Shown piece after piece: positions 2,755 through 47,833 of a stretch of DNA of 64,000 nt. The notes under the pieces are model-generated. The model was not told where the DNA came from and did not search any database. It saw nothing but the letters and a program-made list of their open reading frames with translations. A program made the position numbers and the translations under genes. The DNA lies in the IMG/VR virus record IMGVR_UViG_3300038701_002786, positions 15,101-79,100 of that record. One strand, given 5' to 3'. How positions within the stretch are numbered: the first letter of the stretch is position 1; every line of letters begins with the position of its first letter. Source of the stretch: a virus.

Positions 2755-3152
2755 GGCTCATCTCCTGACTGTGTCGATTCATCGATCGAAAAGTTTGCTC
2801 GCACATACCAACCACCTTCGTCATAACCGCCAGCAGTAATACATAGCCCAAGAACCAACCCAGTGCCTTCAAGATCGAGCTTGAGCCAGGACTTGAACAT
2901 TTCCATGTCCAAATCATCTATATGGCCCTCATCTTGATGACCGCTCAAATCCGCGACCACTGACCATTGCGTATCGTGCGGTCTTTCGTTGATGCGTTCG
3001 ATGGCCTTTTTGCGCATCTTTTGGTACGCGCATGAGGTCGTGTGCTTGACTCTTTCTTGCTTTTTCTTCTCCGCTTCGCGTGCTTGAGCCGCCAGTTGAC
3101 GACGTTTTTCTTGAAGTTGAGCGACTGTTGGGAATTGTGTCGTGTCTGACAT
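2751..3152 (-). CDS. Hypothetical protein, FPT paralog B
   Basis: Start MSDTTQFPT preceded by GAGG; similar along its length to 3154-3540. Confidence 0.65.
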   Translation of the reverse strand: MSDTTQFPTVAQLQEKRRQLAAQAREAEKKKQERVKHTTSCAYQKMRKKAIERINERPHDTQWSVVADLSGHQDEGHIDDLDMEMFKSWLKLDLEGTGLVLGLCITAGGYDEGGWYVRANFSIDESTQSGDEP

Positions 3153-3153
3153 T

Positions 3154-3540
3154 TCAACCTCTTGTTGGTCTTGGTTTTGAACCCTTTCTATCGATGCGAG
3201 AAAATCCACAACTGATTGACCAGCGAGGACCGTCAAGGAGTTCAAAAATTTGAAACTCCATACCTGTTTCTTTGATTTTATCCTGTACATTTGACTGAAT
3301 AATGTCTCTGTCAACAAGCTCAGCTTTGAGGTTATATGGGGCATCGACAATCACTCTGAGAGACCACTTGCTGTTGTCAAAACGGTCTCGAATACACTTC
3401 GCTGCCTCTTCCAAAATTTGTTCACACGCAACATCGTGCATCTTAAAGCGAGCCTCTTCTCGAAGCTTATCTTCTTCAGCTTCCATCTGTGCCTTCTTTT
3501 CTAACATTTGGTCGAGTTCTTTTGTTGTCGGAAAATCCAT
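3154..3540 (-). CDS. Hypothetical protein, FPT paralog A
   Basis: Start MDFPTTKEL preceded by GGAGG; similar to 2751-3152. Confidence 0.65.
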   Translation of the reverse strand: MDFPTTKELDQMLEKKAQMEAEEDKLREEARFKMHDVACEQILEEAAKCIRDRFDNSKWSLRVIVDAPYNLKAELVDRDIIQSNVQDKIKETGMEFQIFELLDGPRWSISCGFSRIDRKGSKPRPTRG

Positions 3541-3572
3541 TGGTTCCTCCATGGATGTAGGTTATCTATCGT

Positions 3573-3887
3573 TCACTCGAATCGTTGCGGGTTGTGTATG
3601 ATAGGCATCAATGCCACCTCGATCATCGGACTCTCCCTCGGATCTCCGCTATCGTAAGACAGTTCTTTGTATTGTACCCTCCATTGGTATTCTTCGAGCA
3701 ACCGAACCACTGTTGGCATAAGGCGCATATTCGATGCGTGGACATGAACCACATGTGATCTATTATGGGGGTTCTTTGTGGCCTCACGAATCAATGAGGT
3801 TTTGATTTGCTCAATGACCTCACGCGCAAGCTTAATTTGCTTCGGTTCAACCAATTCGTTCAATTCACCTGGTGTTGGGAAGTTCAT
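3573..3887 (-). CDS. Hypothetical protein, divergent FPT paralog C
   Basis: Start MNFPTPGEL overlaps the upstream stop (ATGA). Confidence 0.6.
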   Translation of the reverse strand: MNFPTPGELNELVEPKQIKLAREVIEQIKTSLIREATKNPHNRSHVVHVHASNMRLMPTVVRLLEEYQWRVQYKELSYDSGDPRESPMIEVALMPIIHNPQRFE

Positions 3888-4303
3888 TTCACCGTCCTTT
3901 TGTTTTTGTAGTTTTCGATCTGCTTGTTGATATATGTGGCGTCTGGATACATTGGTCGTTGAAGTTGCCGAGCGCCATGCCGATACCCGGCTGTACGCCG
4001 AAAGCCCAACGCATATTGCTTGATTTGCCAAATGACCACATTTTCGCGGCGGTTTGCGCTGTACGGTTGCTCGTGCGTCACATGGTGCCACACCTGTCTT
4101 GCGACTTCATAAAAAACGGGAGCATTCACGCCATCAGGCTCTTGCATGGCCACGCGAACACATTCGCGCAACAGCCAATCCAACTTGCCCATCGCAAAAC
4201 CCTCAACACACACGCATTTCTCTTCTTCGATTATAGCAAAATCCGTGCACTTTTGCATGGCCTTATGCTTCCCAAGCGCGCAAATCGAGTTCTTGTTGTT
4301 CAT
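3884..4303 (-). CDS. Hypothetical protein
   Basis: Co-oriented ORF filling the gap; start uncertain. Confidence 0.45.
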   Translation of the reverse strand: MNNKNSICALGKHKAMQKCTDFAIIEEEKCVCVEGFAMGKLDWLLRECVRVAMQEPDGVNAPVFYEVARQVWHHVTHEQPYSANRRENVVIWQIKQYALGFRRTAGYRHGARQLQRPMYPDATYINKQIENYKNKRTVK

Positions 4304-17886: not shown

Positions 17887-19337
17887 ACGTTGCTCGCGCT
17901 CATCAAAAACTTGGCATTATCTGAAGCATCCAGTGTTCGCAACATCTCGTGCGCAATCGCTTCTGCCGAATCAGGAGGCACAGCGTTACCAATTCGTTTG
18001 ACCCAATCCTGTTTGTTATTGCCACACAAGTCGACATCGGTGGGTAACGACTGGAGCGCCGCCAATTCCATGGGCGTCAATGGCCGATGCCACGTTCCGT
18101 CCAGCGCCCTGATAACCATCAACGAACGCTTGTGTGGGTTACTGAAATCCATCGCAGGACCGATGAGCACCACACCATCGTCAGCACGTACAAGGTGATG
18201 AGTGGGCTCGGGCCATCGACGTGCATCTGCAACTGAAACAGCACTATTGTCATGAGATGCAGCTGCGACAATCGTTCCAATATGTTCAGACCAACCAACT
18301 ACACCATAAGCGCCCGCTCTTGGCTTGCATGTAATCCTTGGGTCCGCTGTGTTTTGTCCATGGTAGGAGTTCGCACACGCAATGATCGTGTTCTGCGCCG
18401 AGTCCCAACCACTGACGCCCAATGCCCCTGCCTGTTGTTGATAGGCAATGCGAGGATCTGCAATTTGCATCCCGGTATTTTGAATACTAGCCCAGGCGAT
18501 GATGGCATGTACTTGCTCATCCCATCCCGTAACACCAAATCCCTCTTGTAACGCACAGGTGTATCGGGGATCGAGGGATTCTTCAGTTTCGATCACTGTC
18601 ACCCTCTCTGGCAAATCGCGCCAATCACCCCCAGCGGGGATCAAAGCAAGCCTCAGCCAATTCATCGGTGAAAGTTGTGTCAGAACATGCAACCGGTTGC
18701 CACTATCATCCCACGGGCCAGGCACAGGATGATGGCCAATCACATCACCAACGCCCTTCATTGCCCTCCTGGGGGGTTCGTAGAGGTACTCTGGTGTACT
18801 CGCCATGTGGCGCGCCACACCGAGGAATCTGCGCCGATTCTGAGCCAACCCGCCAAGTTCTCCGCAGTTGTGTGTGGATTGACGCCACGCATACCCATAG
18901 TTGGCCATTAACAACTTGATCTCTTCGAGCCACTTACGACCACGAGACAAGATCTTCGGCACGTTTTCCATAATGATCAGTCTTGGTGGGTTGTCAGGCC
19001 ACGCCTCAAGAGCCAGCCATATCCCCCGTTCGGCCCATGCGCACATTTCGACATACTTGTCTGTTTTGGCCAAGGCTTCGGGCAGACAACCTGAGAAGCC
19101 CTTACATGGAGGACTTGTAAAGACAACATCAGGCGCTTGCTCTCCGAAAATTCGGACGAGGTCTTGGGGCTGCGCTGTACCCAAGTCCAACACATGAGCC
19201 TCATGGCCCGTAATGCGCTTGTAATCAGCAACAGCTGATGGATCAAAATCGATCCCTACAGTGTCGAACCCGGCCCGAGCAAAACCCAACGAACCGCCAC
19301 CCAGGCCACAAAACAAACTCAAGCAGCGCCGTTGCAT
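17853..19337 (-). CDS. dcm: DNA (cytosine-5)-methyltransferase
   Basis: LFCGLGG (motif I), SPPCKGFS (IV), MENVP (VI), QNRRR (VIII), RPLT (IX), IGNAVPP (X). Confidence 0.93.
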   Translation of the reverse strand: MQRRCLSLFCGLGGGSLGFARAGFDTVGIDFDPSAVADYKRITGHEAHVLDLGTAQPQDLVRIFGEQAPDVVFTSPPCKGFSGCLPEALAKTDKYVEMCAWAERGIWLALEAWPDNPPRLIIMENVPKILSRGRKWLEEIKLLMANYGYAWRQSTHNCGELGGLAQNRRRFLGVARHMASTPEYLYEPPRRAMKGVGDVIGHHPVPGPWDDSGNRLHVLTQLSPMNWLRLALIPAGGDWRDLPERVTVIETEESLDPRYTCALQEGFGVTGWDEQVHAIIAWASIQNTGMQIADPRIAYQQQAGALGVSGWDSAQNTIIACANSYHGQNTADPRITCKPRAGAYGVVGWSEHIGTIVAAASHDNSAVSVADARRWPEPTHHLVRADDGVVLIGPAMDFSNPHKRSLMVIRALDGTWHRPLTPMELAALQSLPTDVDLCGNNKQDWVKRIGNAVPPDSAEAIAHEMLRTLDASDNAKFLMSASNVWVDQQVGRLM

Positions 19338-25114: not shown

Positions 25115-25402
25115 ATGGATTGGAACGCTCAAATTGAACCATTGACCCACGTGGAACGTCAAACAATCATTGATGCCATTCTTGCTTTTTGTCGCGCACA
25201 CAATTTGACTGATGCAGCAATAGCTCAAGCTGTTGACCTGTCAAAAGCGTCGATCTCAACGGCGAGAAACAGCAAGAAGCCCTCGCAAACGACGATCATT
25301 AAACTGTGTCAATTGTTCGAAATACGGTTTGCCTCCACTGTGGCGTGGTATCGCTGGTACGAAGCATACAAGGACGTTATTGGAACCGAGCCTGAATTAT
25401 GA
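25115..25402 (+). CDS. XRE/Cro-family HTH transcriptional regulator
   Basis: TDAAIAQAVDLSKASISTARN...PSQTTIIKLCQLF; first gene right of the divergent promoters. Confidence 0.75.
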   Translation: MDWNAQIEPLTHVERQTIIDAILAFCRAHNLTDAAIAQAVDLSKASISTARNSKKPSQTTIIKLCQLFEIRFASTVAWYRWYEAYKDVIGTEPEL

Positions 25403-26196
25403 CCAAAGAAGCTATTGTAATCACCATTGCCACTCAAAAGGGCGGGGTTGGCAAAACTACCGCAGCTGTCAATATTGCACACGGTTTTGTGCTCCAAGGC
25501 AAGTCAGTGTTGTTGGTTGACCTCGACAGTCAGGGCAACGCTACATTCTATTACGGAGTCGATGACCACAGGCATGGGAAAGACCTCCATGAGGCAATTA
25601 TTTGGGAGGAATTGGGTTTTGAAGATGAACCGCCACCAACATCACCAAGGATCGTCCAAACTGATTTTGGCGTCGACATCATGCCTGGTGGTGCATTTCT
25701 TGCCAAAACAGAAGCCCACCTGCATTCAATGCAATTTAACGCCCAGCAACTCGATCTGATTATCGAAAGAGAGTCGTTGCGCGAAAAATATGATTACATC
25801 ATCTTCGATACAGCTCCATCACTCGGGCCAATGACTTTCAATGCCTTTGTAGCCTCTGACCGCGTGATCATCGCGATCAATTGCGATGCCGCCAGTATCC
25901 TCGGGATGAAGCAAACCATGCGAACGATGAAGAGGGCCAAAGATGCAATGAATCAAAGCCTGAGTCTCTGGGGGATTTTACCCTCCGAATATGACGTGAG
26001 GAACAATCTGGATGTGCAAATCCTGGAGCAAGTACAAGCCTCATACCCCAACCACGTGTTGCCCCTGATCAGAAAAAACATTAAGGTGAGAGAATCTGTA
26101 TCGTTCCAAATGCCTGTTGTGGCCTATGACAAGAATTGTTCTGGCGCGCAGGACTATACAGCCCTTACCAAACATCTGCACGACATGGAGCAATAA
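25399..26196 (+). CDS. parA: ParA-family partition ATPase
   Basis: QKGGVGKTT deviant Walker A, LVDLDSQGNAT, YDYIIFDTAPSLG. Confidence 0.93.
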   Translation: MTKEAIVITIATQKGGVGKTTAAVNIAHGFVLQGKSVLLVDLDSQGNATFYYGVDDHRHGKDLHEAIIWEELGFEDEPPPTSPRIVQTDFGVDIMPGGAFLAKTEAHLHSMQFNAQQLDLIIERESLREKYDYIIFDTAPSLGPMTFNAFVASDRVIIAINCDAASILGMKQTMRTMKRAKDAMNQSLSLWGILPSEYDVRNNLDVQILEQVQASYPNHVLPLIRKNIKVRESVSFQMPVVAYDKNCSGAQDYTALTKHLHDMEQ

Positions 26197-27405
26197 ATGG
26201 CGACACGCAAAATTCGTAAAGCCACCCCTGACAACTTCGTTTCCTCAACTGAGGAGACGGATGAAGTTTTTGACGCGATCACTGGCACACCCAAAGGCGA
26301 AGTGTTCAAGGAAGAACCTCTCGCACTGCACACATTAACTATGAGCAGCTTAACCCAACCCCGTGTACAGTTGCGACAGGATGTTATTGATGATTACGCT
26401 GGCAAGATGCACAAAGAACGAGGGCGTACAGGTTGGGTGATTAACCCAATGACGAAGAAACGATGGGAACCGATCGTTGTGTTCACCGATGGCGACAGTT
26501 TCTGGCTGGCTGATGGATACCATCGAGTTAAAGCAGCTCAAAAACGTGGCCTGCAATTGTTCCAAGCCAAATTCAGAAAAGGAACCAAATTTGATGCTTT
26601 TAAATTTTCATTGAGCGTCAATGAAAACCACGGGCTCAAAAGGTCAAAGGGCGATCAAGCGCATATTGCCCGCAAAGCATTGCTCGACCCACATCTGCGT
26701 CGGCTCTCCAGCAGAGAATTGGGCGACCTCACGTTGATGTCGCACACCTATATTTTAAAAATCAAAAAACAAATGATCGCCGATGGACTCATTCCTGACG
26801 ATGAGACTGTCAAGGGTGGAGACGGCAAAATTTACCCTGCAACAGTCCCCCAGGAACCGACACAGCCAATGGTGCGCAAAGCCGGTAGCAAAGAACTCCC
26901 TGGGGCAACTGAAGAACCCAGGGTGCAAAAGATTGATAGTTCTGGGGGCGATGAAGGCATCGTTGAAGTAAACGTCGAAGAACAGGAAATCGAGTCGACA
27001 AGAACATGGCGCGAAGAACTGGAGACTGTTGCTGATAATATCATCAGTTTTGATGAAGCCGATGATACGCACTGGGCGGTTGAATGCGCAATTGTCGTAC
27101 CGAAAGAAGATAAACAATGGTCCTGGGCGATCGAACATGGCACCAAACTGGAAGGGGCAGATGCGATTTTGCTCATTCCCATGCCACCAAGTCATCTGTT
27201 GTTGGATTTCATGTTGCGTGTAGATCGAGAACAACGAATGAACAACGCGTACAGCCATGTCCATTATTGTATCGTGGGACGCGAAAGTTGGCTGGTGTTG
27301 TCCAAGACAGATATAGACGGCGCCAAGTTTTATGCAGATTTTGATGATCTATTGGCTGCCGTGGGGATAGCGGCCTATCGAACTGTGGAGATAAGAACGA
27401 AATGA
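26197..27405 (+). CDS. ParB/Srx N-terminal domain protein with HTH
   Basis: PIVV..LADGYHRVKAA..N..HG..R; directly follows parA. Confidence 0.75.
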   Translation: MATRKIRKATPDNFVSSTEETDEVFDAITGTPKGEVFKEEPLALHTLTMSSLTQPRVQLRQDVIDDYAGKMHKERGRTGWVINPMTKKRWEPIVVFTDGDSFWLADGYHRVKAAQKRGLQLFQAKFRKGTKFDAFKFSLSVNENHGLKRSKGDQAHIARKALLDPHLRRLSSRELGDLTLMSHTYILKIKKQMIADGLIPDDETVKGGDGKIYPATVPQEPTQPMVRKAGSKELPGATEEPRVQKIDSSGGDEGIVEVNVEEQEIESTRTWREELETVADNIISFDEADDTHWAVECAIVVPKEDKQWSWAIEHGTKLEGADAILLIPMPPSHLLLDFMLRVDREQRMNNAYSHVHYCIVGRESWLVLSKTDIDGAKFYADFDDLLAAVGIAAYRTVEIRTK

Positions 27406-38330: not shown

Positions 38331-38363
38331 TGGCAATGAATGAGTCTTAAATGTAAACTCATT
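38331..38363 (+). promoter_or_regulatory. sigma70-like promoter TGGCAA-17-TAAACT with embedded motif B
   Basis: AATGAGTCT-TAAATGT-AAACTCATT at 38339-38363. Confidence 0.65.
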
Positions 38364-38399
38364 GGCACAACAAATAGGAAAACAGCGAGGATATACAAT

Positions 38400-39290
38400 A
38401 TGTACCGTATCTTAGGTAAGGCTGCCGATCATCAACAGTGGTTGGAGATGAGGCGTAAAGGCATCGGCGGTTCGGATGCTTCAGCTATTTTGGGTTGCAA
38501 TCCGTTTTCTTCGCATCTCCAAGTTTGGCAGGAGAAACGTTCCACAAGTGTCCCTGTACCGCAAGACACTCCGTATACTCGGTTTGGCTCTTTGGCGGAG
38601 GATTATATTTTAGGGCGTTTGAATGAGCGATACGATGAACTCATTGTAGAGGGCGCTTCACTGGGAACTTTGCAAAGCAAAGCACGACCATGGCAATTGG
38701 CCAACGTGGATGGGAAAGTCCATGAGCAACCAATTGGATTGGAGATCAAAACATGTGACCTATCATCTGCCGAGTGGTGGTCTAATGGTGTTCCTGATTA
38801 TTATTACGCCCAGGTGCAGCACTACATGTCAGTGACGGGTTGGCCGGTCTTTCATGTGTGGCTTATGGTTTGCCCAATGAGCCGCGATAGCGCACTCCAG
38901 ATGTTCGATGAGTTTATCTTGCCGAGTGAGTTTATGGCGAAGTTGGTCGAGGTGAGTGAATTGAGGCAGTTTGTTGTAGATCGGCATGACGACTTCATTT
39001 GCCAACTGAATAGAGCGGAACTCAAATTTTGGGAGTCTGTTTCTGGTGGGTTGACGCCACCAACGCCTCCTAAATGCGTAGATATGCGTTCTGATGATGA
39101 ATTCAAGGGATTGGTTTCATTGTTTATGGCATCGCGCAAACAAGAGCGTGCGCATCGTGACGCAAGAAAGTCTCATCAGGACCAAATCATCAGTTCTCTT
39201 GGGGGCGCCACTAAAGCCTACTTGCCAGATGGTCAGTTAAGTGTCCGCGATGGTGATTGGGGCAAATATATCCAGATCTACAAGTATTGA
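38400..39290 (+). CDS. YqaJ-like viral recombinase / lambda-exonuclease family nuclease
   Basis: WLEMRRKGIGGSDA, ANVDG, LEIKT, YYAQVQHYM. Confidence 0.9.
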   Translation: MYRILGKAADHQQWLEMRRKGIGGSDASAILGCNPFSSHLQVWQEKRSTSVPVPQDTPYTRFGSLAEDYILGRLNERYDELIVEGASLGTLQSKARPWQLANVDGKVHEQPIGLEIKTCDLSSAEWWSNGVPDYYYAQVQHYMSVTGWPVFHVWLMVCPMSRDSALQMFDEFILPSEFMAKLVEVSELRQFVVDRHDDFICQLNRAELKFWESVSGGLTPPTPPKCVDMRSDDEFKGLVSLFMASRKQERAHRDARKSHQDQIISSLGGATKAYLPDGQLSVRDGDWGKYIQIYKY

Positions 39291-39321: not shown

Positions 39322-39585
39322 GGACTGAAGCTTTTCTTAGAAGAGGGCGATTGAACGCCCGTTTATTACTTCAGGCGGAGGACAGAACCATGTGACTCCT
39401 TGATTGTTCGGAACCGGGCTTGTTCGATGCCCAATGCCATGTGAAAGGCGATTGTATGATTTATCTGAAACCATTTATCGAGGGCCAAACAATGAAGCGA
39501 TAATAACAAATTTGCCGGGTGCCCGGCGCATAACAATTTAGGAGCAAGGCCCACTCGAAATCGAGTGGGCCTTGCTTGTTGTAGT
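39322..39585 (+). ncRNA. Candidate small RNA / leader (promoter-to-terminator unit without a long ORF)
   Basis: Good promoter, several short hairpins and a strong terminal hairpin; no family recognised. Confidence 0.35.
39543..39585 (+). terminator. Probable intrinsic terminator
   Basis: 16-bp stem AGCAAGGCCCACTCGA / TCGAGTGGGCCTTGCT followed by TGTTGTAGTT (imperfect U tract). Confidence 0.7.
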
Positions 39586-39635: not shown

Positions 39636-40445
39636 ATGAAACGTATGTGTGTTGTGTTCTTTGTTTTGTTGGGTGCGTGTTCAGCAGGGACTGACTCGCC
39701 TATGCGGGGGCCAGACATCCCTGTGGCTTTGGACATGGTTGATATGTCCTCAGATCAACCATCGAATCCGGTTGACATGTTGGATATGGTGTCTGATGCA
39801 GATAGCGATATACCAGATGTCGATATGGTTCGCTCTGAAGGGTTTGGTGCGATCAGTGGCCAGTGCGATGTTTTGGGCGTAGAACTAACAGCTGCTTCAG
39901 GGGTTTTGCGCGTTAATTCTATAGATTTTGGGGACGACCCGTATGACGATGAGGACAAGGATCTTTTGACGATGGGTGGTCAGGAAATCATCGATGATGG
40001 CAATGCTGGTGGGTCGTCTGTGTTGAGTGAGGTTTTTTCGTTCGAAGTGCTTCAGCGCTGTGAAGGAGCGACACTGTTGAAAACAGAGACAGAGATCGAA
40101 TACAAAATGCAGGGTAAGATTACTGATCTACTGGTGCAAATTGATGGCGTGAAAATTGGCGTGAGTGTGACTCGGGCCGTTAAGTTCCCGCGAGACCAGG
40201 TGACAATGTTCGAATATTCACGCGCGCGTACTTTACTGGAGAAGAAGTTGGGCGATGTCTTGCTCAGCAGTGCCAATGTAGCAATGGGCGACTTATGGTC
40301 AAAGCAGATATTGCACGTATTGGCATACGATCGACAACATGCCGATGTCATCCAGGATGCCTATAATGACATCGGCGTTGACTTGACTGCGGATACCATT
40401 GTTCTGGTAACCATTACTGATGGGCAGGATGAGTTCATCTATTAG
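39636..40445 (+). CDS. Lipoprotein with acidic linker and conserved 'GGSSxxSE...GVSVTRA' domain
   Basis: Signal peptide with lipobox LGAC; D-rich D(M/I)-type linker. Confidence 0.75.
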   Translation: MKRMCVVFFVLLGACSAGTDSPMRGPDIPVALDMVDMSSDQPSNPVDMLDMVSDADSDIPDVDMVRSEGFGAISGQCDVLGVELTAASGVLRVNSIDFGDDPYDDEDKDLLTMGGQEIIDDGNAGGSSVLSEVFSFEVLQRCEGATLLKTETEIEYKMQGKITDLLVQIDGVKIGVSVTRAVKFPRDQVTMFEYSRARTLLEKKLGDVLLSSANVAMGDLWSKQILHVLAYDRQHADVIQDAYNDIGVDLTADTIVLVTITDGQDEFIY

Positions 40446-40450
40446 ATTCA

Positions 40451-42340
40451 TTACCAAAGGACAACTGGTTGGTCTGCCGGTTCGTTTGTTTCGTCGCCCA
40501 AGGCTTCCAGGGTTGAAACTGGGATGCCTAACCCCAAGCCTCCGTAAGAGTTACTGCCCCAGCAGTACACATTGCCATCTTCTACGAGCGCGCATGTTCT
40601 GTAGAACCCAGCTTCAACCTGAACAACTTTTCCCGGCAGCAGCACTGGAAAGGTGGGGTTTCGAGTGCCGGTTGTGTTGCCAAGGCCCAGTGCCCCATTG
40701 AAATTGTTGCCCCAGCAATACACTCGGCCCGCGAGATCGATTGCGCATGTGTGTTGATAGCCCGCTGACACATCTACAGCACCAAATTGGAGCGGTACTT
40801 CAATTGGCGGCATTTCAGCTGGCCCATCACCAATGTCATTGTTGTTTCCAATGCCAAGTTGTCCAAATTCATTTCTTCCCCAACACTGGACTTTGTCATT
40901 GTTGGTGATGATGCATGTATGTTCATATCCTGCATCAATGGTTTTTGCATTGCTGATACTGATTTGGCCCGTGATGGGTTTGTTGGATAAGCCTATATTG
41001 TCTTGGTGGCCCAGGCCGAGTTCGCCAAACTCGTTTCTGCCCCAACACGTAACATCGCCTGAATTGAATAGAACACACGCATGTTCATCGCCGACTGCCA
41101 ATTCTTTGACATTGCTGGCGAGTACGTTGGGTTGTAGCGGATAATCTTCAGCGTTTCTACCTAGGGTCGGGGTATCTTGGTTGAGTCCTAGTTGTCCATA
41201 TTGATTGGAGCCCCAACATGTGACTTGGCCTGTTGTCAAAAGGGCGCACGTAAATAGTTCGCCTTGTTGGACATCTGTTACTGTGGTCGTCAGTTCAACA
41301 GTTTCAAAGACATCGGAGGTTGAGTCTCCAATTGCTTGCTCACCGTTGACGACGCCTGCTTTGGCTAGTGTATTGGCACCCCAACAGACTGCCTTATCAT
41401 CAGGTGTTACTGCACATGTATTGGCTCCTGTAGATTGGCCCATTCTTTTGCCAAAAACTTTAGCGCTCTTGAGCGGTACGCTCGCCGGAGACTCTCCTTG
41501 TGGGGTAGTGTTCAGCAGAGCAAGTTGACCGGAGTTGTTGCTGCCCCAACACCTTAGTTTGGTGTTGTTCAGGCGTGCGCAGATATGATTGAGGCCCATT
41601 GCGATTTCAATGGCAGCCAGCCTCCATCCTGCGACGTATTCAGTGATGTATGCGTCTTGACCAGGATGTTGAGTGATTTGGGCTCGGTATAGACGTTGTT
41701 CCCCATTTGGAAGCGCAGTAATGTCGGTGGTTGAGGTCAATAACTGCCATTGGTTGCCATTGTCTGAATATTCAAATGATATAGCCATATTGGTTTCAAG
41801 GCGCCCTTCAATCACGTCACTGGTCAGCCCAGGTCGGTCGAACGTGTCGATCGCTCGGACCACATATTGGTGTTTTTTTGGCTCGATGACTTGGATGTTA
41901 TCAAGTCCAATTGCAACATGAGCTCTATATTCACCTTTGGACGCCTTAACCGTTGCTGTTTGAATTGTGCCCAGGTTAGCGTTTTGATCTTTGTATATTG
42001 TATCCAAGCCAAGATCGAGCCATGTGCCGTTGAGACAATCAGGAGAAGCGTCTTTGCAAATTTGATACTTAGTTGCCCCAGGAATTCCGCGCCATGTCAG
42101 TTGTATATGGCTTGTTGTGGCCTCAAGCTCAACGACAGGCGCTTGGAGCGTAGATGGCAATGTGTCTGCGTCCACATCCGATGTGATGTCATTGGCGGCG
42201 TCAGATGGCATATCGACGGCATCAATCATGTCGATTCTTACATCCCACTCCTCATTGTAGTTGTTGGGGTTCTCAAACAAAGTGCAGCCAGACACCAGTA
42301 GAAATAAAATACCAATTGTAAAAAGCTTCATATTCACCAC
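40451..42340 (-). CDS. RCC1-repeat (beta-propeller) lipoprotein with FN3-like region
   Basis: Lipobox VSGC; about 7 repeats of H.CA...G...CWG.N..GQLG. Confidence 0.88.
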   Translation of the reverse strand: MVNMKLFTIGILFLLVSGCTLFENPNNYNEEWDVRIDMIDAVDMPSDAANDITSDVDADTLPSTLQAPVVELEATTSHIQLTWRGIPGATKYQICKDASPDCLNGTWLDLGLDTIYKDQNANLGTIQTATVKASKGEYRAHVAIGLDNIQVIEPKKHQYVVRAIDTFDRPGLTSDVIEGRLETNMAISFEYSDNGNQWQLLTSTTDITALPNGEQRLYRAQITQHPGQDAYITEYVAGWRLAAIEIAMGLNHICARLNNTKLRCWGSNNSGQLALLNTTPQGESPASVPLKSAKVFGKRMGQSTGANTCAVTPDDKAVCWGANTLAKAGVVNGEQAIGDSTSDVFETVELTTTVTDVQQGELFTCALLTTGQVTCWGSNQYGQLGLNQDTPTLGRNAEDYPLQPNVLASNVKELAVGDEHACVLFNSGDVTCWGRNEFGELGLGHQDNIGLSNKPITGQISISNAKTIDAGYEHTCIITNNDKVQCWGRNEFGQLGIGNNNDIGDGPAEMPPIEVPLQFGAVDVSAGYQHTCAIDLAGRVYCWGNNFNGALGLGNTTGTRNPTFPVLLPGKVVQVEAGFYRTCALVEDGNVYCWGSNSYGGLGLGIPVSTLEALGDETNEPADQPVVLW

Positions 42341-43116
42341 CTTGTAATGAATTGTAATGATGTAGGGGTAGCACGTATGGCGACTGAGGTTTCTACAGTC
42401 AACAGATCAGCACTCAACAATAAAACACCACCCACGCCGAACAAGATAGTGCCACCAAGGGCTGTTCGACCACGCCACTGAGCGTTATTGAGTAGCGTTG
42501 CATTGCGTTCGAATTCTGTGGATGAGCGAGAGCTATTAGTTTTTTTCAAGTATTGTTCGACCTCGTTGAGTTCTCGATTCAACCAAAACCCACTCAATAC
42601 ACCGAATCCGATAGACACTATGCCAAGATAACCTGTTGTGCTCATGCGAGATTGCATAGTTTTTGGGCCATGGTTGGTGATAGATACATTTTGTCCAGCG
42701 CAGACGCCTTGCGCGTTTTGACACCTGTTGTCGTTGGTTTGGTTTGTGTTACTGGTTACATTGGGTTTTGTGGGCGCAGTGGTTTGGTCCGAGCCTAGGA
42801 GTTGACGGGCTCGTTTTACACGGGCAGCGCGTTCGGGTGATAGTTTAGTTTGATCGACGAGACCACAAACACGGCGTGCGTCGGTATCGCGTTTGGCATC
42901 GATGAGCATCATACACCATGAGTAGGCCACGATAGGGCGAGGCGTTGACTTCCATGTGCGCTCGAACAACACATCAGATGAGTTGTACTGGCCATCGCGA
43001 GCCTTTTGAAGTGCTTGTTCATATGTTGTGTCTTTCGCCACTGCCAAGGATGGCCAGAGCATCATAATGGCGATGAGCCATCGTATGCTTCTGTTTTTGA
43101 TTTTGTATTGTTCCAT
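42334..43116 (-). CDS. Secreted/membrane TPR-like protein
   Basis: Signal peptide (AVA), helical TPR-like N-domain, linker, C-terminal hydrophobic segments. Confidence 0.65.
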   Translation of the reverse strand: MEQYKIKNRSIRWLIAIMMLWPSLAVAKDTTYEQALQKARDGQYNSSDVLFERTWKSTPRPIVAYSWCMMLIDAKRDTDARRVCGLVDQTKLSPERAARVKRARQLLGSDQTTAPTKPNVTSNTNQTNDNRCQNAQGVCAGQNVSITNHGPKTMQSRMSTTGYLGIVSIGFGVLSGFWLNRELNEVEQYLKKTNSSRSSTEFERNATLLNNAQWRGRTALGGTILFGVGGVLLLSADLLTVETSVAIRATPTSLQFITRW

Positions 43117-44318
43117 TTTAACTTGTTTCCCATTTTAAGTTTTGACGAATTTTGTCTTTTTTTAATTTCTATTGCAAATCGAAGAGTGTGAGCGCTAACC
43201 AAGTCGGCGCGGATATTCGCCTGTGAGTTTGGGTCGCCGTTGAAAGTGAGTTGGGAGTTGTTGACGCTCCGTTTGATTGAAATAATGTGTGCGTGTGTTT
43301 TCGATTGATTATAGATTCTTGTTGCTATCGAGCCTGCTGAGATTTTGCCATTCAGGTTGTTAAGATTTGTTTGGTAGTCAGGCTCCTTTGGTTGATTTTG
43401 TTCACGTTCGTGAATCTCCAAAATCATCAATGCAGTGACCCAGCCAACCACAACCACAAAGGCAATTGTCATTGAAGTGCCCCGATGTTGTTTAGGCACC
43501 ACGATCGGCTTTATCTCTGTTGGTTTCTCAAGCGAATTGAGCAATTGCTTTGAGTTGGCTGCTCGTTCAAAGAGAACTTTTTTCAGCATTAAATTAATGG
43601 CGGATTCTAATTGAGGGTCATGGAGATTAACCTCAAGGGATGGTCCATTGTAGAGATTTGACAGAAATCGCTTGGCCACTGAGTTTTTATGCATCTCCAA
43701 TGTGGCGCCTTTGCACAGCCAGTAGCAAACCATGCCCAGGCTATACAAATCTGATTGGTGCGTGAGCTTGGTTGGGTCGATGTGTTCAGGGGATGAGCAG
43801 TCCAAGGTGCCCAGTGTTGTTTCATCGGTCGTCAACGGTTGTTGATTTCGCCCCCAAGAAGAAGAGCCAAAATCAATAAGAACGGGCCGCGTGATGTTGT
43901 TATCGCTGAGCATGATATTGCCGAGGGATATGTCACGGTGCAAAACCCCATGTTCCTTCAAGGACTGGAGCACCCCGAGCATTGATGTCAAAAAAGATTT
44001 CAGTTGAAGTTCTGTAATCACGTTACCGGATTCAAGCCATTCCCATACACTACAGCCTTCAACGTAATTCGTTACAATGTGTAGTTTGTCGTCTTTATGG
44101 ATAACATCCATAAACCGCAGCATTTGTCCGTTGAGACCTTGTAGTTTTGACAACACCTCAATTTCGCGTTTGGCACGAGCCCGTTTCGTTTCGTTTGAAT
44201 TGAAGTCAATTGTTTTTATAGCAACCAGACGACCTTCATCGTCTGATGCTCGCCAGATTTCACCGTTGGCGCCATGACCGATGCTTTCGTGTATCATGTA
44301 TGGACCAAGGCGATTCAT
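43062..44318 (-). CDS. Hanks-type Ser/Thr protein kinase with transmembrane helix
   Basis: IGHGANGEIW, VAIK, HRDISLGN, DFG, GT..SPE, SDLYSLG; TM IAFVVVVGWVTALMIL. Confidence 0.9.
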   Translation of the reverse strand: MNRLGPYMIHESIGHGANGEIWRASDDEGRLVAIKTIDFNSNETKRARAKREIEVLSKLQGLNGQMLRFMDVIHKDDKLHIVTNYVEGCSVWEWLESGNVITELQLKSFLTSMLGVLQSLKEHGVLHRDISLGNIMLSDNNITRPVLIDFGSSSWGRNQQPLTTDETTLGTLDCSSPEHIDPTKLTHQSDLYSLGMVCYWLCKGATLEMHKNSVAKRFLSNLYNGPSLEVNLHDPQLESAINLMLKKVLFERAANSKQLLNSLEKPTEIKPIVVPKQHRGTSMTIAFVVVVGWVTALMILEIHEREQNQPKEPDYQTNLNNLNGKISAGSIATRIYNQSKTHAHIISIKRSVNNSQLTFNGDPNSQANIRADLVSAHTLRFAIEIKKRQNSSKLKMGNKLKWNNTKSKTEAYDGSSPL

Positions 44319-44674
44319 CGCTGCACTCGTCGCCTTGTAATGGGAGCACCTGATTCGGCCATGTAAGATAAGGCTCCACCATAGTACAGAGTAGTGCGCC
44401 TGACTCCGAATAGAGGAGCCAGTTGGTCCAGCAACTTTATGTCGTCGAGTTCGACATAAAAGTGCATGTAGTTATCAAAGATGCTTTCGATCCCTTCTTT
44501 TGTTGAAAAAGGATGCCAGTATTCGTCTTCAACCTTTTGGTTGATGTGAGCAATTACTTCTTTCGAGAACTGTTTAGAGTCGTCACCGAAGTGTTTGCTT
44601 ATGTAGTCATCGAGTTGTTGTTGTTCGTTTGGTGGGACTTTGATTTTAAGGGACGATGAGTATGATTTTCCCAT
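44315..44674 (-). CDS. Putative tandem ribbon-helix-helix DNA-binding protein
   Basis: Two alternating-hydrophobic strand + helix units (SLKIKVPPNEQQQLDDYI; MHFYVELDDIKLLDQLA). Confidence 0.5.
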   Translation of the reverse strand: MGKSYSSSLKIKVPPNEQQQLDDYISKHFGDDSKQFSKEVIAHINQKVEDEYWHPFSTKEGIESIFDNYMHFYVELDDIKLLDQLAPLFGVRRTTLYYGGALSYMAESGAPITRRRVQR

Positions 44675-44738
44675 GATGTGGTCCTTTGAGTTCGATTGTG
44701 CAAGTTGATCTGTTTATGACGGATCGACGCAATATTTG

Positions 44739-44843
44739 CAACAGTTTCTTGGAAAACTTTTCTTGTACAATTTTGACTGGAAAAAGTTTCTTGGAAAAGT
44801 TTTCCAAGAAACTGTTGACTGGAAAACTTTTCTAAACTAGTCT
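44739..44843. promoter_or_regulatory. Operator array (four GGAAAA.TTT(T)C boxes) with rightward promoter TTGACT-17-TAGTCT
   Basis: Perfect 24-bp inverted repeat 44739-44762 / 44794-44817; 29-bp palindrome 44785-44813; -35 at 44815-44820, -10 at 44838-44843. Confidence 0.8.
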
Positions 44844-44870
44844 CCTAATCAATCGCACAGGAGACCGTCA

Positions 44871-45971
44871 ATGAAAGTGACCGCGCAAAATATGTTTGAA
44901 GCGTTAACACGTGTTCAACACGCCATTTTTCACAAAAATGGGCGCGTCCTTTTGTTTGAACAGAATGGGCAAACCTTTGTATTTGCAAGCAATAATGATT
45001 GGAACGCAAAGTGCTTTGCTCAGGTGTTGACCCCTGTACAAGCATACGCCGAAGAGGGGGAGTGTTATGTTGTGCCAGCTGGGGACTTCAGGGCAACTAT
45101 CAAGATGATTGAGGGCGAAGTCGAACTCAGTGGGAACGGGCCGCATGTTGAGGTGAGTCACGGGCAGGGGACTCATTTTCGGTTTTTGGGTCTCGCTGAA
45201 GAAAGCAGACTTTTGGTTGATTCCTCGAAGAGCATGATTCGGGTTGATGAGCCAATTGCTTCTTTGAAGATGGATGGTGAGAACTTCGTTAAGTCATTGA
45301 AGTTGGCATCAGTTCGTGCTCAAGACGCCGATTTTCCTGTGCAAATCCTATCCAAAAATTCAGCCATTCGTTTTTGTGGTTTAACACGACGACAGGTGTC
45401 AATTGTTTACACCACTGGTCAGGTAGACGGTGTCATTCGTATTCCTCAAACATATTTGAGGGCTATTGAATCGTTTGTTGATACAAGCAAACAAGTTTCC
45501 GTGGTGATGTCAGAATCATACGTCAAAATCACACAAGAACAGTCAGTTTTAACGATTGGGGTCGAGGCAGACCCATTCCCTCAAGTTGAACAAGTGCTCA
45601 GCGCTTTGGAGCGCAATTCAGTATCTTGTCTTGTTCGCAAAGTTGAGGCGGTCAGAGCATTGGAACTTATCCGTCAAGGCGTGCCCCCCAAGATACCAGC
45701 GTTCAAAATTGGTTTTGATGGTGAAGAGCTTCGCCTGGTCGCACCGGATTTGAACGGCAGAATTGTGGTTGAAACACCTCTAAGTTGTACCAACCTCATT
45801 GGCAGTGTCCAATGGTCTACGATGAGATTGCAGCAACCTTTTGTTGCTAATGCGCTCAAAAACATACCAACCAGCAACGTTAAGTTGTTGTTTCCAGATA
45901 ATAAATTAGAGCCTTTGATTATTCAATCCGACGATGGGCTTGTTAGTCAGATCGTCGCACCGATGAGATGA
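44871..45971 (+). CDS. Divergent DNA polymerase III beta sliding-clamp-like protein
   Basis: 366 aa; FPQVEQVL resembles the clamp (Y/F)PxYxxVI motif; C-terminal PLII...IVAPMR. Confidence 0.62.
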   Translation: MKVTAQNMFEALTRVQHAIFHKNGRVLLFEQNGQTFVFASNNDWNAKCFAQVLTPVQAYAEEGECYVVPAGDFRATIKMIEGEVELSGNGPHVEVSHGQGTHFRFLGLAEESRLLVDSSKSMIRVDEPIASLKMDGENFVKSLKLASVRAQDADFPVQILSKNSAIRFCGLTRRQVSIVYTTGQVDGVIRIPQTYLRAIESFVDTSKQVSVVMSESYVKITQEQSVLTIGVEADPFPQVEQVLSALERNSVSCLVRKVEAVRALELIRQGVPPKIPAFKIGFDGEELRLVAPDLNGRIVVETPLSCTNLIGSVQWSTMRLQQPFVANALKNIPTSNVKLLFPDNKLEPLIIQSDDGLVSQIVAPMR

Positions 45972-46245: not shown

Positions 46246-46844
46246 AAAAGATACAGTCAGTTAAGTTTTCAGGTTTTGCCCTGCTCAATGAACCTCGCCG
46301 TCGGCATGGTCAGCCAACAGTATTGTCCGTCGATCCCATGACTGGCGCACGCCAGATGCGGGATGAGATCGTGTCGTTCAATGCGTTGCCACCAACAGTC
46401 AAGTCGATTGTCATTGAGCCAGGTCAGGCGGTTTTAGCTGTTTGTGATTTGCAGGCGCAGTTTGCAAATGATGAATGTGGTCAGATTCTGCTCGGACATC
46501 AAGCAGGTGCAAACGGGTTGGTTGCATCGACCGTGGCTATCGCACCTGGAAGTTCCTTTGATAAGGACAACCCATTGTGTGTGTGTTTGCGTAACTGTGG
46601 TTCTTCTCGACTGCATCTGGGGGTTGAAAGCACCTATGTGCAAATGTGGACTGAAGCTTGCGTTAGTATGGGACCGTCGAAGACTTTGAGTCGGCAACGT
46701 TTGAGTGAGTTGAGAGCGCTTGTGGGCAACATGGAGTTACATCTCCAACCCAATCTCCCCATACAAATGACGGATACTGACATCGCACTGAACAATCTTG
46801 AGTTATTGAAGTCGGTTCTCGCTGACTTGGAGGATGAACAATGA
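46242..46844 (+). CDS. Hypothetical protein
   Basis: ATGA overlaps on both sides. Confidence 0.6.
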   Translation: MKKIQSVKFSGFALLNEPRRRHGQPTVLSVDPMTGARQMRDEIVSFNALPPTVKSIVIEPGQAVLAVCDLQAQFANDECGQILLGHQAGANGLVASTVAIAPGSSFDKDNPLCVCLRNCGSSRLHLGVESTYVQMWTEACVSMGPSKTLSRQRLSELRALVGNMELHLQPNLPIQMTDTDIALNNLELLKSVLADLEDEQ

Positions 46845-47833
46845 AAGCCTATCAAGACTTGATTCGACACGTTTTGACCAATGGTTGCGAAAAAGAGGGC
46901 CGAAATGGCGGCACTATTTCGGCCTTTGGAGCAGAGATGAAGTTCAATTTGCAAGATGGGTTTCCGATTGTCACGACCAAGGCGATCTTCTTTGGCAAGA
47001 TGCTTGATGAGTTGCTCGCATTTTGTCGTGGCCATATCTATCTGGATGAATTTGGCAGCGCTCGTTCATTCTGGGCACCATTCGCCGATGAACACGGATG
47101 CCTTGGCCCTATCTACGGTTACCAGTGGCGAAGAGGGAAATGGGCGACTGGAGACAATGAGGGCGGCCATAAGGTCGTGGAAATTGACCAACTCAAGCAG
47201 GTGATTGAAAATATCATCGCACACCCATATTCACGTCGACACATTGTGACGTCGTGGAACCCCGGTCAAAACGACGAAATGGGTTTGCCCCCTTGTCACT
47301 CGTTTTTCCAGTTTAATGTGCGCCCCGCGATTAGTTTTATTAATGACGAGCGTCAGATTGCGACCACTCGTGTGTATTTGAATGCGTTGAAGAACCTTAT
47401 GGGCGAAGAGGAGTTCATGGCATTCTACGATGGATGTGCTGGTCCTGGTGGTCAACTGTCTGCCTTGGCCATTGCCGAAGGTGTTCGTGAACGTGGTCTT
47501 CCTGACAAGTTTTTGAGTTGTAAGATGTATCAGCGTTCAGCTGATGTCTTTTTGGGTGTGCCGTATAATATCTCGTCTTATGCAACTTTGACGCATATGG
47601 TCGCGCAGGTGACAAACTGTTTGCCAGGTACGTTGTATCATTCGTTGGGCGATTCGCATTTGTATGACGAACATATCAACCAAGCGCTCGACATCCTGGA
47701 CCGAGACCCTCATCCATTGCCAACATTAAGGCTGGATCGTTCCGTCAAAGATATTGACGAGTTTGAATCAACTCATTTTCATTTGGAAAATTATACCTCT
47801 GAACCGTTTATGCCCGCACCGTTGATCGCGTGA
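46841..47833 (+). CDS. thyA: Thymidylate synthase
   Basis: GPIYGYQWR, SRRHIVTSWNP, LPPCH, YQRSADVFLGVPYNI, GDSHLY. Confidence 0.96.
   Translation: MKAYQDLIRHVLTNGCEKEGRNGGTISAFGAEMKFNLQDGFPIVTTKAIFFGKMLDELLAFCRGHIYLDEFGSARSFWAPFADEHGCLGPIYGYQWRRGKWATGDNEGGHKVVEIDQLKQVIENIIAHPYSRRHIVTSWNPGQNDEMGLPPCHSFFQFNVRPAISFINDERQIATTRVYLNALKNLMGEEEFMAFYDGCAGPGGQLSALAIAEGVRERGLPDKFLSCKMYQRSADVFLGVPYNISSYATLTHMVAQVTNCLPGTLYHSLGDSHLYDEHINQALDILDRDPHPLPTLRLDRSVKDIDEFESTHFHLENYTSEPFMPAPLIA

Follow-up and report, generated by a model that had tools for sequence, protein, structure and literature searches.

Why does a phage carry, inverted among its replication genes, a membrane Ser/Thr kinase accompanied by two envelope proteins and a ribbon-helix-helix (RHH) protein? 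The question is raised by positions 40,451 to 44,674 of a 64,000-nucleotide stretch of viral DNA, called here the window, which corresponds to bases 15101-79100 of the 81.5-kb linear record IMGVR_UViG_3300038701_002786 (IMG/VR). On balance, we lean towards reading this four-gene cassette as an autonomous phage operon, in which a phage-specific tandem-RHH regulator is joined to a compact, Myxococcota-type, three-part envelope receptor-kinase module. The sequences suggest that the phage probably adds in this way an envelope sensing or signalling channel to its host.

Organization of the Cassette

Four tightly packed open reading frames (ORFs), in the order P0001, P0002, P0003 and P0004, occupy the minus strand of the segment 40451-44674, and an array of repeats lies upstream:

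44315-44674, minus strand: P0001, 119 aa, single-chain tandem RHH protein
43062-44318, minus strand: P0002, 418 aa, membrane Hanks-type Ser/Thr kinase
42334-43116, minus strand: P0003, 260 aa, "P3-like" adaptor with a signal peptide
40451-42340, minus strand: P0004, 629 aa, RCC1 beta-propeller lipoprotein, with a probable start at ATG 42331
44739-44835, no strand: operator-like repeat array, in the gap of 196 nt (44675-44870) that separates the cassette from the divergent clamp/ThyA operon

Successive genes overlap by 4, 55 and 7 nt, the last overlap being replaced by a 2-nt gap when P0004 starts at ATG 42331. The 4-nt overlap of P0001 and P0002 suggests translational coupling. The four ORFs are real genes and not chance frames, since each of them has homologues in three other phage contigs. 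An initial annotation of the window had described four overlapping genes opposite to the flanking phage genes, in agreement with the present ORF positions and with the plus-strand flanks. It had also called the cassette visibly A/T-richer. This is correct for the RHH gene and the kinase gene (GC content of 0.439 and 0.441, respectively) and for the upstream intergenic region (0.378), but not for the cassette as a whole, which has a GC content of 0.470 compared to 0.4766 +/- 0.0096 in windows of the same size (24th percentile). The last two genes, with 0.483 and 0.488, are at the phage level. Within the cassette, promoter-like and terminator-like sites did not exceed the shuffled expectation, which as a sequence criterion fits one transcription unit without proving it.

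The upstream array contains a perfect 24-nt inverted repeat (44739-44762 and 44794-44817) and four GGAAAA(C/G)TTTTC-type boxes in a 14-bp phase. It is a candidate operator, to which P0001 would bind. The same gap in the related phages described below holds different, unrelated repeats.

Conservation in Four Phage Lineages

Among 5.8 billion clustered proteins, the kinase has a single full-length relative, encoded on L002, a 61-kb Logan contig (the L-numbers designate the contigs or locus stretches compared). On L002 the four genes recur in the same order and at the equivalent position, again inverted, with the exonuclease gene on one side and the clamp and ThyA genes on the other. The cassette proteins of the window and L002 are 38, 34, 38 and 35% identical, and the flanking proteins 46% (YqaJ exonuclease), 22% (clamp-like) and 51% (ThyA). 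It follows that the cassette was not inserted recently but diverged together with the phage. The word "cargo" used in the initial annotation, if taken to mean such an insertion, does not apply: the GC content is not deviant and the divergence is about equal to that of the flanking core genes.

A full HMMER search with P0003 returned six proteins in all, two of which are encoded by L003 and L004-L006, additional phage contigs of 48 and 52 kb, respectively. On these contigs the four-gene cassette diverges from a block of small HTH/LexA-like genes and runs directly into parA, a ParB-like gene and, further on, the small terminase gene. Few other genes match between the window and these contigs. 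The identity is 37% for the RCC1 protein and 31-45% for the P3-like protein, above the values for ParA (26-30%) and ParB (24-28%). The cassette is present in four phage lineages, all uncultured, and two genome contexts, with 16-45% identity. The synteny search proposed at the outset for the four genes thus finds them conserved together, and these comparisons indicate that the cassette is old and under selection.

The other searches yielded little. With the kinase, tblastn in phages gave just generic matches (24-30% identity). Word-indexed protein searches with P0003 alone and with the A1 profile retrieved only P0003 itself and one relative, the scan of genome contigs with the P3 alignment retrieved no relatives, and the scan of viral contigs with P0004 patterns found nothing. 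A search for near-identical DNA gave no match and no close relative in the INPHARED phage collection.

A Counterpart of the Module in Myxococcota Genomes

The two remaining HMMER matches of P0003 are located on cellular-looking contigs, directly 3' of a longer membrane kinase gene. A profile built from the six P3-family proteins detected 14, 2 and 14 copies in three Myxococcota metagenome-assembled genomes (MAGs), and in 6 of 20 neighbourhoods from these MAGs the adjacent upstream gene, on the same strand, encodes a kinase. In a sample of 61 Myxococcota genomes this was the case for 12 of the 14 best full-length matches. Altogether the kinase and P3-like genes form a pair in 18 of 34 Myxococcota loci, with chance adjacency estimated at most at about 5% from the frequency of kinases in these genomes (approximately one per 45 kb). 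The P3-family profile matched 30 of the 61 Myxococcota genomes at E <= 1e-5, with up to 11 copies each, and none of five genomes of other phyla, even at E <= 0.01.

Kinase, P3-like and RCC1 genes were found in the phage order at two loci, L104 (a Myxococcales MAG) and L126 (a complete 5.05-Mb chromosome). Both loci encode an RCC1 lipoprotein that resembles the phage one in its lipobox and Asp-rich linker, and a 4-nt overlap joins the kinase gene to the P3-like gene at L104. A survey of 79 RCC1 loci, drawn from all phyla, showed a kinase gene beside the RCC1 gene almost only in Myxococcota. In addition, two single ORFs fuse a kinase, a transmembrane helix and RCC1 repeats (L064:6291-9038 in a Myxococcales MAG and L056:3707-7483 in a Gemmatimonadales MAG). 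They are predicted to be receptor kinases with a propeller ectodomain, and gene fusions of this kind are a classical sign of cooperation between proteins that are otherwise encoded separately. The initial idea of a myxobacterial kinase-TPR-lipoprotein cluster is well supported by the 18 pairs and the two trios, and the last three phage genes appear to mirror a gene trio common in myxobacterial chromosomes. No name was found in the literature for a module made of a kinase, a TPR(-PEGA) protein with two transmembrane helices and a variable third gene.

The phage and cellular modules have in common the order and tight coupling of their genes, the logic of their domains and a kinase tail with a hydrophobic-acidic end. 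The cellular proteins differ in being larger, with PEGA inserts and mostly a canonical HRDxKPxN loop, and no RHH gene accompanies them. The phage version is 1.4 kb shorter than the L104 trio and is devoid of PEGA inserts. The cellular P3-like proteins are 22-33% identical to P0003, and the GC content of the cellular loci is 58-71% in all but one, compared to 47-48% in the phage. On one of the two cellular-looking contigs from the HMMER search with P0003 (L008:3755-5227), an FG-GAP propeller gene follows the kinase and P3-like genes in place of RCC1, and it seems that different beta-propellers can fill the third position of the module.

The Membrane Kinase

P0002 is composed of a cytoplasmic kinase domain (residues ~7-270), one transmembrane helix (~283-302) and an extracytoplasmic tail of ~115 aa. 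The single helix agrees with the membrane kinase of the initial annotation, as do the motifs that it had listed. The match to Pfam Pkinase (PF00069) covers residues 7-221, with an E-value of 1.7e-35 and 123.1 bits (cut-off 31.7). The motifs present are GHGANG, VAIK (K34), E52, HRD (127-129; D129), N134, DFG (149-151), SPE, D190 and R252. The G-loop, the beta3 Lys and the alphaC Glu exist in both the window and L002 kinases. In the catalytic loop of P0002, HRDISLGN, the Lys of the canonical HRDxKxxN is replaced by a Ser.

The tail is of low complexity and poorly modelled, with a Lys/Asn/Ser-rich linker and the C-terminal end AYDGSSPL; the other phage kinase tails end in VFDGSSPL, VYEGGRN and RYNGTLF. 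Hydrophobic-acidic ends after a Lys/Pro-rich linker are common to the tails of the paired cellular kinases and the phage kinases. A FPALD-type C-terminal motif is present in 7 of 19 paired cellular kinases, and other hydrophobic-acidic ends are found in most of the rest. The FPALD-type C-terminus is a candidate docking peptide. Its form is FPALD(T/S/G)(L/I)(F/Y), after a Lys/Pro-rich linker, in the kinases of L123, L124, L125, L127, L128, L129 and L130.

The Two Envelope Proteins

P0003 begins with a signal peptide, followed by a TPR-like periplasmic domain of five helices (~30-108), a disordered linker carrying two conserved Cys, a hairpin of two transmembrane segments (~160-240) and a C-terminal strand ending in Trp. 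The hairpin consists of two Gly-rich hydrophobic segments, and the loop that connects them is rich in Lys and Arg, which fits a cytoplasmic location of this loop. In the AlphaFold2 (AF2) model, the pLDDT is 78-89 for the helices 30-108 and about 70-75 for the hairpin. P0003 has no Pfam match of its own and matches PgaA-TPR weakly (E 3e-4). Its homologues match TPR_2, TPR_16 and TPR_19, some of them above the cut-off, and the cellular ones have TPR repeats, often with PEGA, ahead of the membrane hairpin. Atlas feature scores of 0.96 also lead to Myxococcota TPR families. The TPR-like exported protein noticed at first fits these predictions, which add a membrane hairpin.

P0004 possesses a lipobox, an Asp-rich linker, two beta-rich domains and an RCC1 propeller of the seven-blade type. 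It matches Pfam WD40_RLD at 1.5e-66 (225.6 bits, cut-off 150), RCC1_2 at 2.3e-65 (six stretches) and RCC1 with 148 bits. The N-terminus, MKLFTIGILFLLVSGC, contains a signal peptide and the lipobox LVSGC, and Cys19 is invariant in the four phage homologues, so that the description as an RCC1 lipoprotein can be kept. The mature end lacks both a Lys at +2 and an Ala at +7. In Myxococcus xanthus lipoproteins, a Lys at +2 marks the inner membrane and an Ala at +7 marks the matrix (PMC3222651). For a myxobacterial host, these rules thus predict an outer-membrane anchor for P0004. The proteins specific to outer-membrane vesicles of M. xanthus include an RCC1 protein (PMC4158809). A scan of genome contigs with RCC1 found 575 relatives with 30-38% identity in Actinomycetota, Myxococcota, Pseudomonadota and Poseidoniales archaea, and the propeller alone is therefore uninformative about the host.

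The Tandem RHH Protein

P0001 does not match any Pfam family, including TraY (PF05509). The AF2 model, obtained from a four-sequence alignment (pLDDT 80, pTM 0.76), shows a strand-helix-helix unit twice, which DSSP places at E6-12, H15-29 and H33-47 for the first and E69-75, H76-89 and H93-107 for the second. In a Foldseek comparison with the PDB, the top 11 matches were F-plasmid relaxosome chains of 100-120 residues (TM-score 0.56-0.68, probability 0.89-1.0), with a sequence identity of only 11-14%. The Atlas model matched the TraY, CopG, NikA and RHH_1 families with TM-scores of 0.62-0.71 (0.65 for TraY). The tandem RHH proposed for the first gene is supported at the level of the modelled fold. 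A homologue of P0001 is the first gene of the cassette in all four phage lineages, and the protein is presumed to be the transcriptional regulator of the operon.

P0001 resembles TraY of the F plasmid, its best structural match, in having two RHH repeats in one chain of ~120 aa. It differs in that no relaxase/oriT context is present and in that its gene opens a signalling operon, next to a repeat array. We did not assign it to the TraY family, considering the lack of a PF05509 match, the 11-14% identity and the neighbouring kinase and clamp-like genes. A toxin-antitoxin or HipBA-like reading of the RHH and kinase genes was also set aside: the RHH protein is a single-chain tandem, the kinase is of the membrane Hanks type, and the pair always travels with both envelope genes. 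The conserved Thr94 of P0001 was considered as a phosphorylation site and dismissed, its position being a helix N-cap, which in RHH proteins is usually a conserved Ser, Thr or Asn.

Genome Setting, Host and Lifestyle

The cassette is inverted inside the replication and nucleotide module, between the exonuclease gene and the clamp-like gene. The main features of the window are the following:

Left arm, minus-strand genes: class II ribonucleotide reductase, Dcm-type methylase, DUF5131 protein
25193-27405, plus strand: HTH_3 gene, ParA (AAA_31, 2e-41) and ParB-like gene, at the point of divergence of the arms
Right arm, plus strand: ParA, ParB-like, DnaB, primase, Dda-like helicase, dTMP kinase, RecE/YqaJ-like exonuclease and, continuing, clamp-like gene, ThyA, resolvase, terminase, portal
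38340-39290, plus strand: RecE/YqaJ-like exonuclease, cassette flank
39636-40445, plus strand: P0005, lipoprotein with the lipobox LLGAC and an acidic linker
44871-45971, plus strand: clamp-like gene, cassette flank
46841-47833, plus strand: ThyA, cassette flank
54-64 kb: terminase, portal and structural genes

P0005 is the second lipoprotein gene with which the cassette had been said to converge, and it does end, at 40445, 5 nt from P0004. Its Atlas model (pLDDT 0.78) matched three hypothetical Myxococcota families with TM-scores of 0.79-0.82 and, weakly, nuclease families of the PD-(D/E)xK type (Mrr_cat, RmuC and YhcG; 0.40-0.45). No Pfam or NCBIfam match was obtained, and there is no counterpart in the three related phage contigs. 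By this comparison P0005 is outside the conserved unit. A 16-bp G+C-rich hairpin resembling a strong terminator (39542-39577, plus strand) ends the ORF-free stretch of ~260 nt that separates the exonuclease gene from P0005.

The window DNA is present in two small "algae metagenome" runs from two studies. Relatives of the large terminase subunit (TerL), near full length and 39-45% identical, were found in 2 of 301 Myxococcota genomes, with weaker matches in two more; 301 Pseudomonadota genomes gave one partial match. Taken with the Myxococcota bias of the P3-like family and the Myxococcota matches of the P0005 model, this points to a Myxococcota host. The GC content of the phage, 48%, is far under that of most of these Myxococcota genomes. 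A 26-kb contig with 52-55% GC from a Myxococcota MAG bin (L140, G094:C73:1-20000, ORFs 3071-4105 and 17935-19308) possesses a terminase 43-45% identical to that of the window and a 345-aa kinase ORF. This contig lacks P3-like and RCC1 genes and may derive from a related phage.

An S24 peptidase domain is encoded upstream of the window (G000:13274-13480 of the record), and the record, which is ~64% complete, revealed no tyrosine integrase. Together with the ParA, ParB-like and HTH genes, this suggests a temperate, plasmid-type prophage, in which case the module is most likely made in the carrier state.

Proposed Mechanism and Alternatives

We propose the following working model. The RCC1 propeller lipoprotein, on the outer membrane, would bind or sense an envelope or external ligand. 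The P3-like protein would be held in the inner membrane by its hairpin, and its TPR-like domain would form a bridge to the extracytoplasmic tail of the kinase, possibly gripping the conserved hydrophobic-acidic C-terminal peptide and thus linking the kinase to the propeller. This bridge would alter the oligomeric state or the activity of the kinase domain, which would then act on host proteins. No FHA (PF00498) or PP2C_2 (PF13672) match exists in the 81.5-kb record, and any output would for this reason go to host proteins. The RHH protein, on the upstream repeat array, would set the level of the operon independently of the lytic genes. In this model we infer the localisation, the physical contacts, the kinase activity, the binding to the operator, the timing of expression and the biological pay-off.

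Several observations weigh against this interpretation. The catalytic-loop Ser is present in all four phage kinases; among the 19 paired cellular kinases, 17 have the canonical Lys and two the Ser variant. The L003 and L004 kinases (L003:8958-10001 and L004:9012-10037) start at the alphaC helix, without the strands beta1-beta3 that bear the G-loop and the VAIK Lys, and retain HRDISPNN, DFG, the transmembrane helix and the tail. The conserved activity may consequently be something other than phosphotransfer, and part of the value of the cassette is perhaps scaffolding. The prediction of a complex between P0003 (28-260) and the kinase (276-418) gave a score of 0.15, below the mark of 0.34, and is neutral with regard to binding. 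Only a minority of the cellular loci have RCC1 as the third gene, an FG-GAP protein or another one being found elsewhere. Myxococcota are pointed to as the host by MAG bins and by the distribution of the family, with no isolate; the record is ~64% complete (CheckV); and no RNA run was among those listed for the 9-kb stretch or the RCC1 gene.

The state of the kinase leads directly to one alternative, a phosphorylation-independent envelope complex in which the protein is a kinase-like membrane scaffold, or pseudokinase, and the trio remodels or occupies the host envelope, for example by receptor masking, an altered outer membrane or contact-dependent behaviour. The Ser in every phage copy speaks for it, as does the conservation within the cassette, which is highest for RCC1 and P3. 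The L003 and L004 kinases are both intact and yet only 33% identical to each other, so that the form without an N-lobe has been long maintained, and it looks like a long-lived pseudokinase-like form. Against this, the window and L002 kinases hold all the other catalytic motifs (G-loop, K34, E52, D129, N134, DFG) and nearly all the paired cellular kinases are canonical. The competence attributed to the kinase in the initial annotation therefore stands for most motifs and is weakened by the loop Ser and by the two lineages without the G-loop/VAIK strand. The chances that the window kinase may still be active are about even, and as an account of the whole cassette the scaffold is quite improbable.

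One of the roles first suggested for the cassette, superinfection exclusion or abortive infection, supposes that an incoming phage triggers the prophage kinase, through the envelope parts or through a phage protein, with phosphorylation of host targets that stops the cell or blocks entry. Prophage or host Hanks kinases can exclude phages, as do 933W Stk and the staphylococcal Stk2. The cassette is phage-borne and beside partition genes in two lineages, and an envelope sensor would be logical for detecting adsorption. The PADLOC models PD-T4-6 and mad6 match the kinase domain with E-values of 1e-32 to 1e-38. These matches, however, reflect the generic kinase domain: the scores are far under the NCBIfam cut-offs, with 79.8 bits for MAD6 (cut-off 460) and 38.7 for PglW (990), and a PD-T4-6, MAD6 or PglW defence kinase was rejected on this ground. 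P0001, P0003, P0004 and P0005 do not match any PADLOC model. To our knowledge, the known defence kinases are cytoplasmic, single-gene proteins. The nearest relatives of the module are cellular signalling pairs in many copies, up to 14 per genome, and a kinase without the ATP-binding strands is kept in two phage lineages. Exclusion is accordingly an unlikely function, and this part of the initial proposal is not supported. That host genes were simply picked up as passenger DNA, with no role for the phage, would agree with the same-order cellular counterparts of the three downstream genes, but all four frames are intact in four lineages at 16-45% identity and in two contexts, the GC content is not foreign to the phage, and a phage-specific regulator and an operator-like array have been added; we consider it very improbable. 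Even less credit can be given to a virion or adsorption role, in which the RCC1 propeller would be a receptor-binding or tail-associated protein. P0004 does match phrog_4219, phrog_7220 and phrog_16766 at 1e-41 to 1e-32, but the lipobox is conserved in all four homologues, the gene belongs to a membrane-kinase operon far from the terminase, portal and structural genes, and the cellular counterparts are chromosomal lipoproteins.

The autonomous operon with its Myxococcota-type receptor-kinase module remains the reading that we prefer. A bolder form of it, to which we give a low probability, is that a myxobacterial plasmid-prophage owns a trans-envelope receptor, made of the outer-membrane propeller, the TPR adaptor and a membrane kinase or pseudokinase, under an RHH switch and reads the exterior of the cell. 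The inputs would be prey or kin contact, envelope damage or the adsorption of a rival phage, and the output would rewire the host Ser/Thr kinase network or feed the decision of the phage between maintenance and induction.

Relation to Known Systems and Significance

In Pseudomonas aeruginosa, a complex of the lipoprotein TagQ and the periplasmic TagR assembles when the membrane is damaged and is proposed to dimerise PpkA, the kinase (PMC13713981). In this threonine-phosphorylation pathway of the H1 type VI secretion system (H1-T6SS; PMC13713981, PMC7817224), as in our model, a lipoprotein and a periplasmic partner act on a single-pass Hanks kinase and an envelope event is relayed to cytoplasmic phosphorylation. 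The likeness is one of working logic only. The partners are unrelated in sequence, being in the cassette a TPR protein with two transmembrane segments and an RCC1 propeller, and the cassette has no vWA ectodomain, Fha, PppA, TagST or T6SS, is phage-borne and begins with an RHH gene.

933W Stk, Stk2, PD-T4-6 and T7 gp0.7 are likewise eukaryotic-like kinases encoded by phages or acting against them. They are soluble single proteins, whereas P0002 is anchored in the membrane and is accompanied by two envelope partners and a regulator of its own. The phage-encoded kinases that we know of so far are soluble enzymes acting inside the cell. In the literature, no paper was found joining a phage kinase to RCC1 or TPR partners, and nothing on myxophage kinases beyond a genome announcement.

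The cassette is a variant of receptor-type Ser/Thr kinase signalling and of phage accessory kinases, real and conserved. The system of P0002 is built like a cell-surface receptor and is kept by four diverged phage lineages. It draws attention to a many-copy, apparently unnamed Myxococcota module, made of a kinase, a TPR adaptor with two transmembrane segments and a variable extracytoplasmic protein, which may explain how part of the very large myxobacterial kinome gets its inputs. How such modules signal could conveniently be studied in the small phage version, as a minimal system. If true, a trans-envelope receptor owned by a phage would be the first receptor-kinase-based sensory system of a phage.

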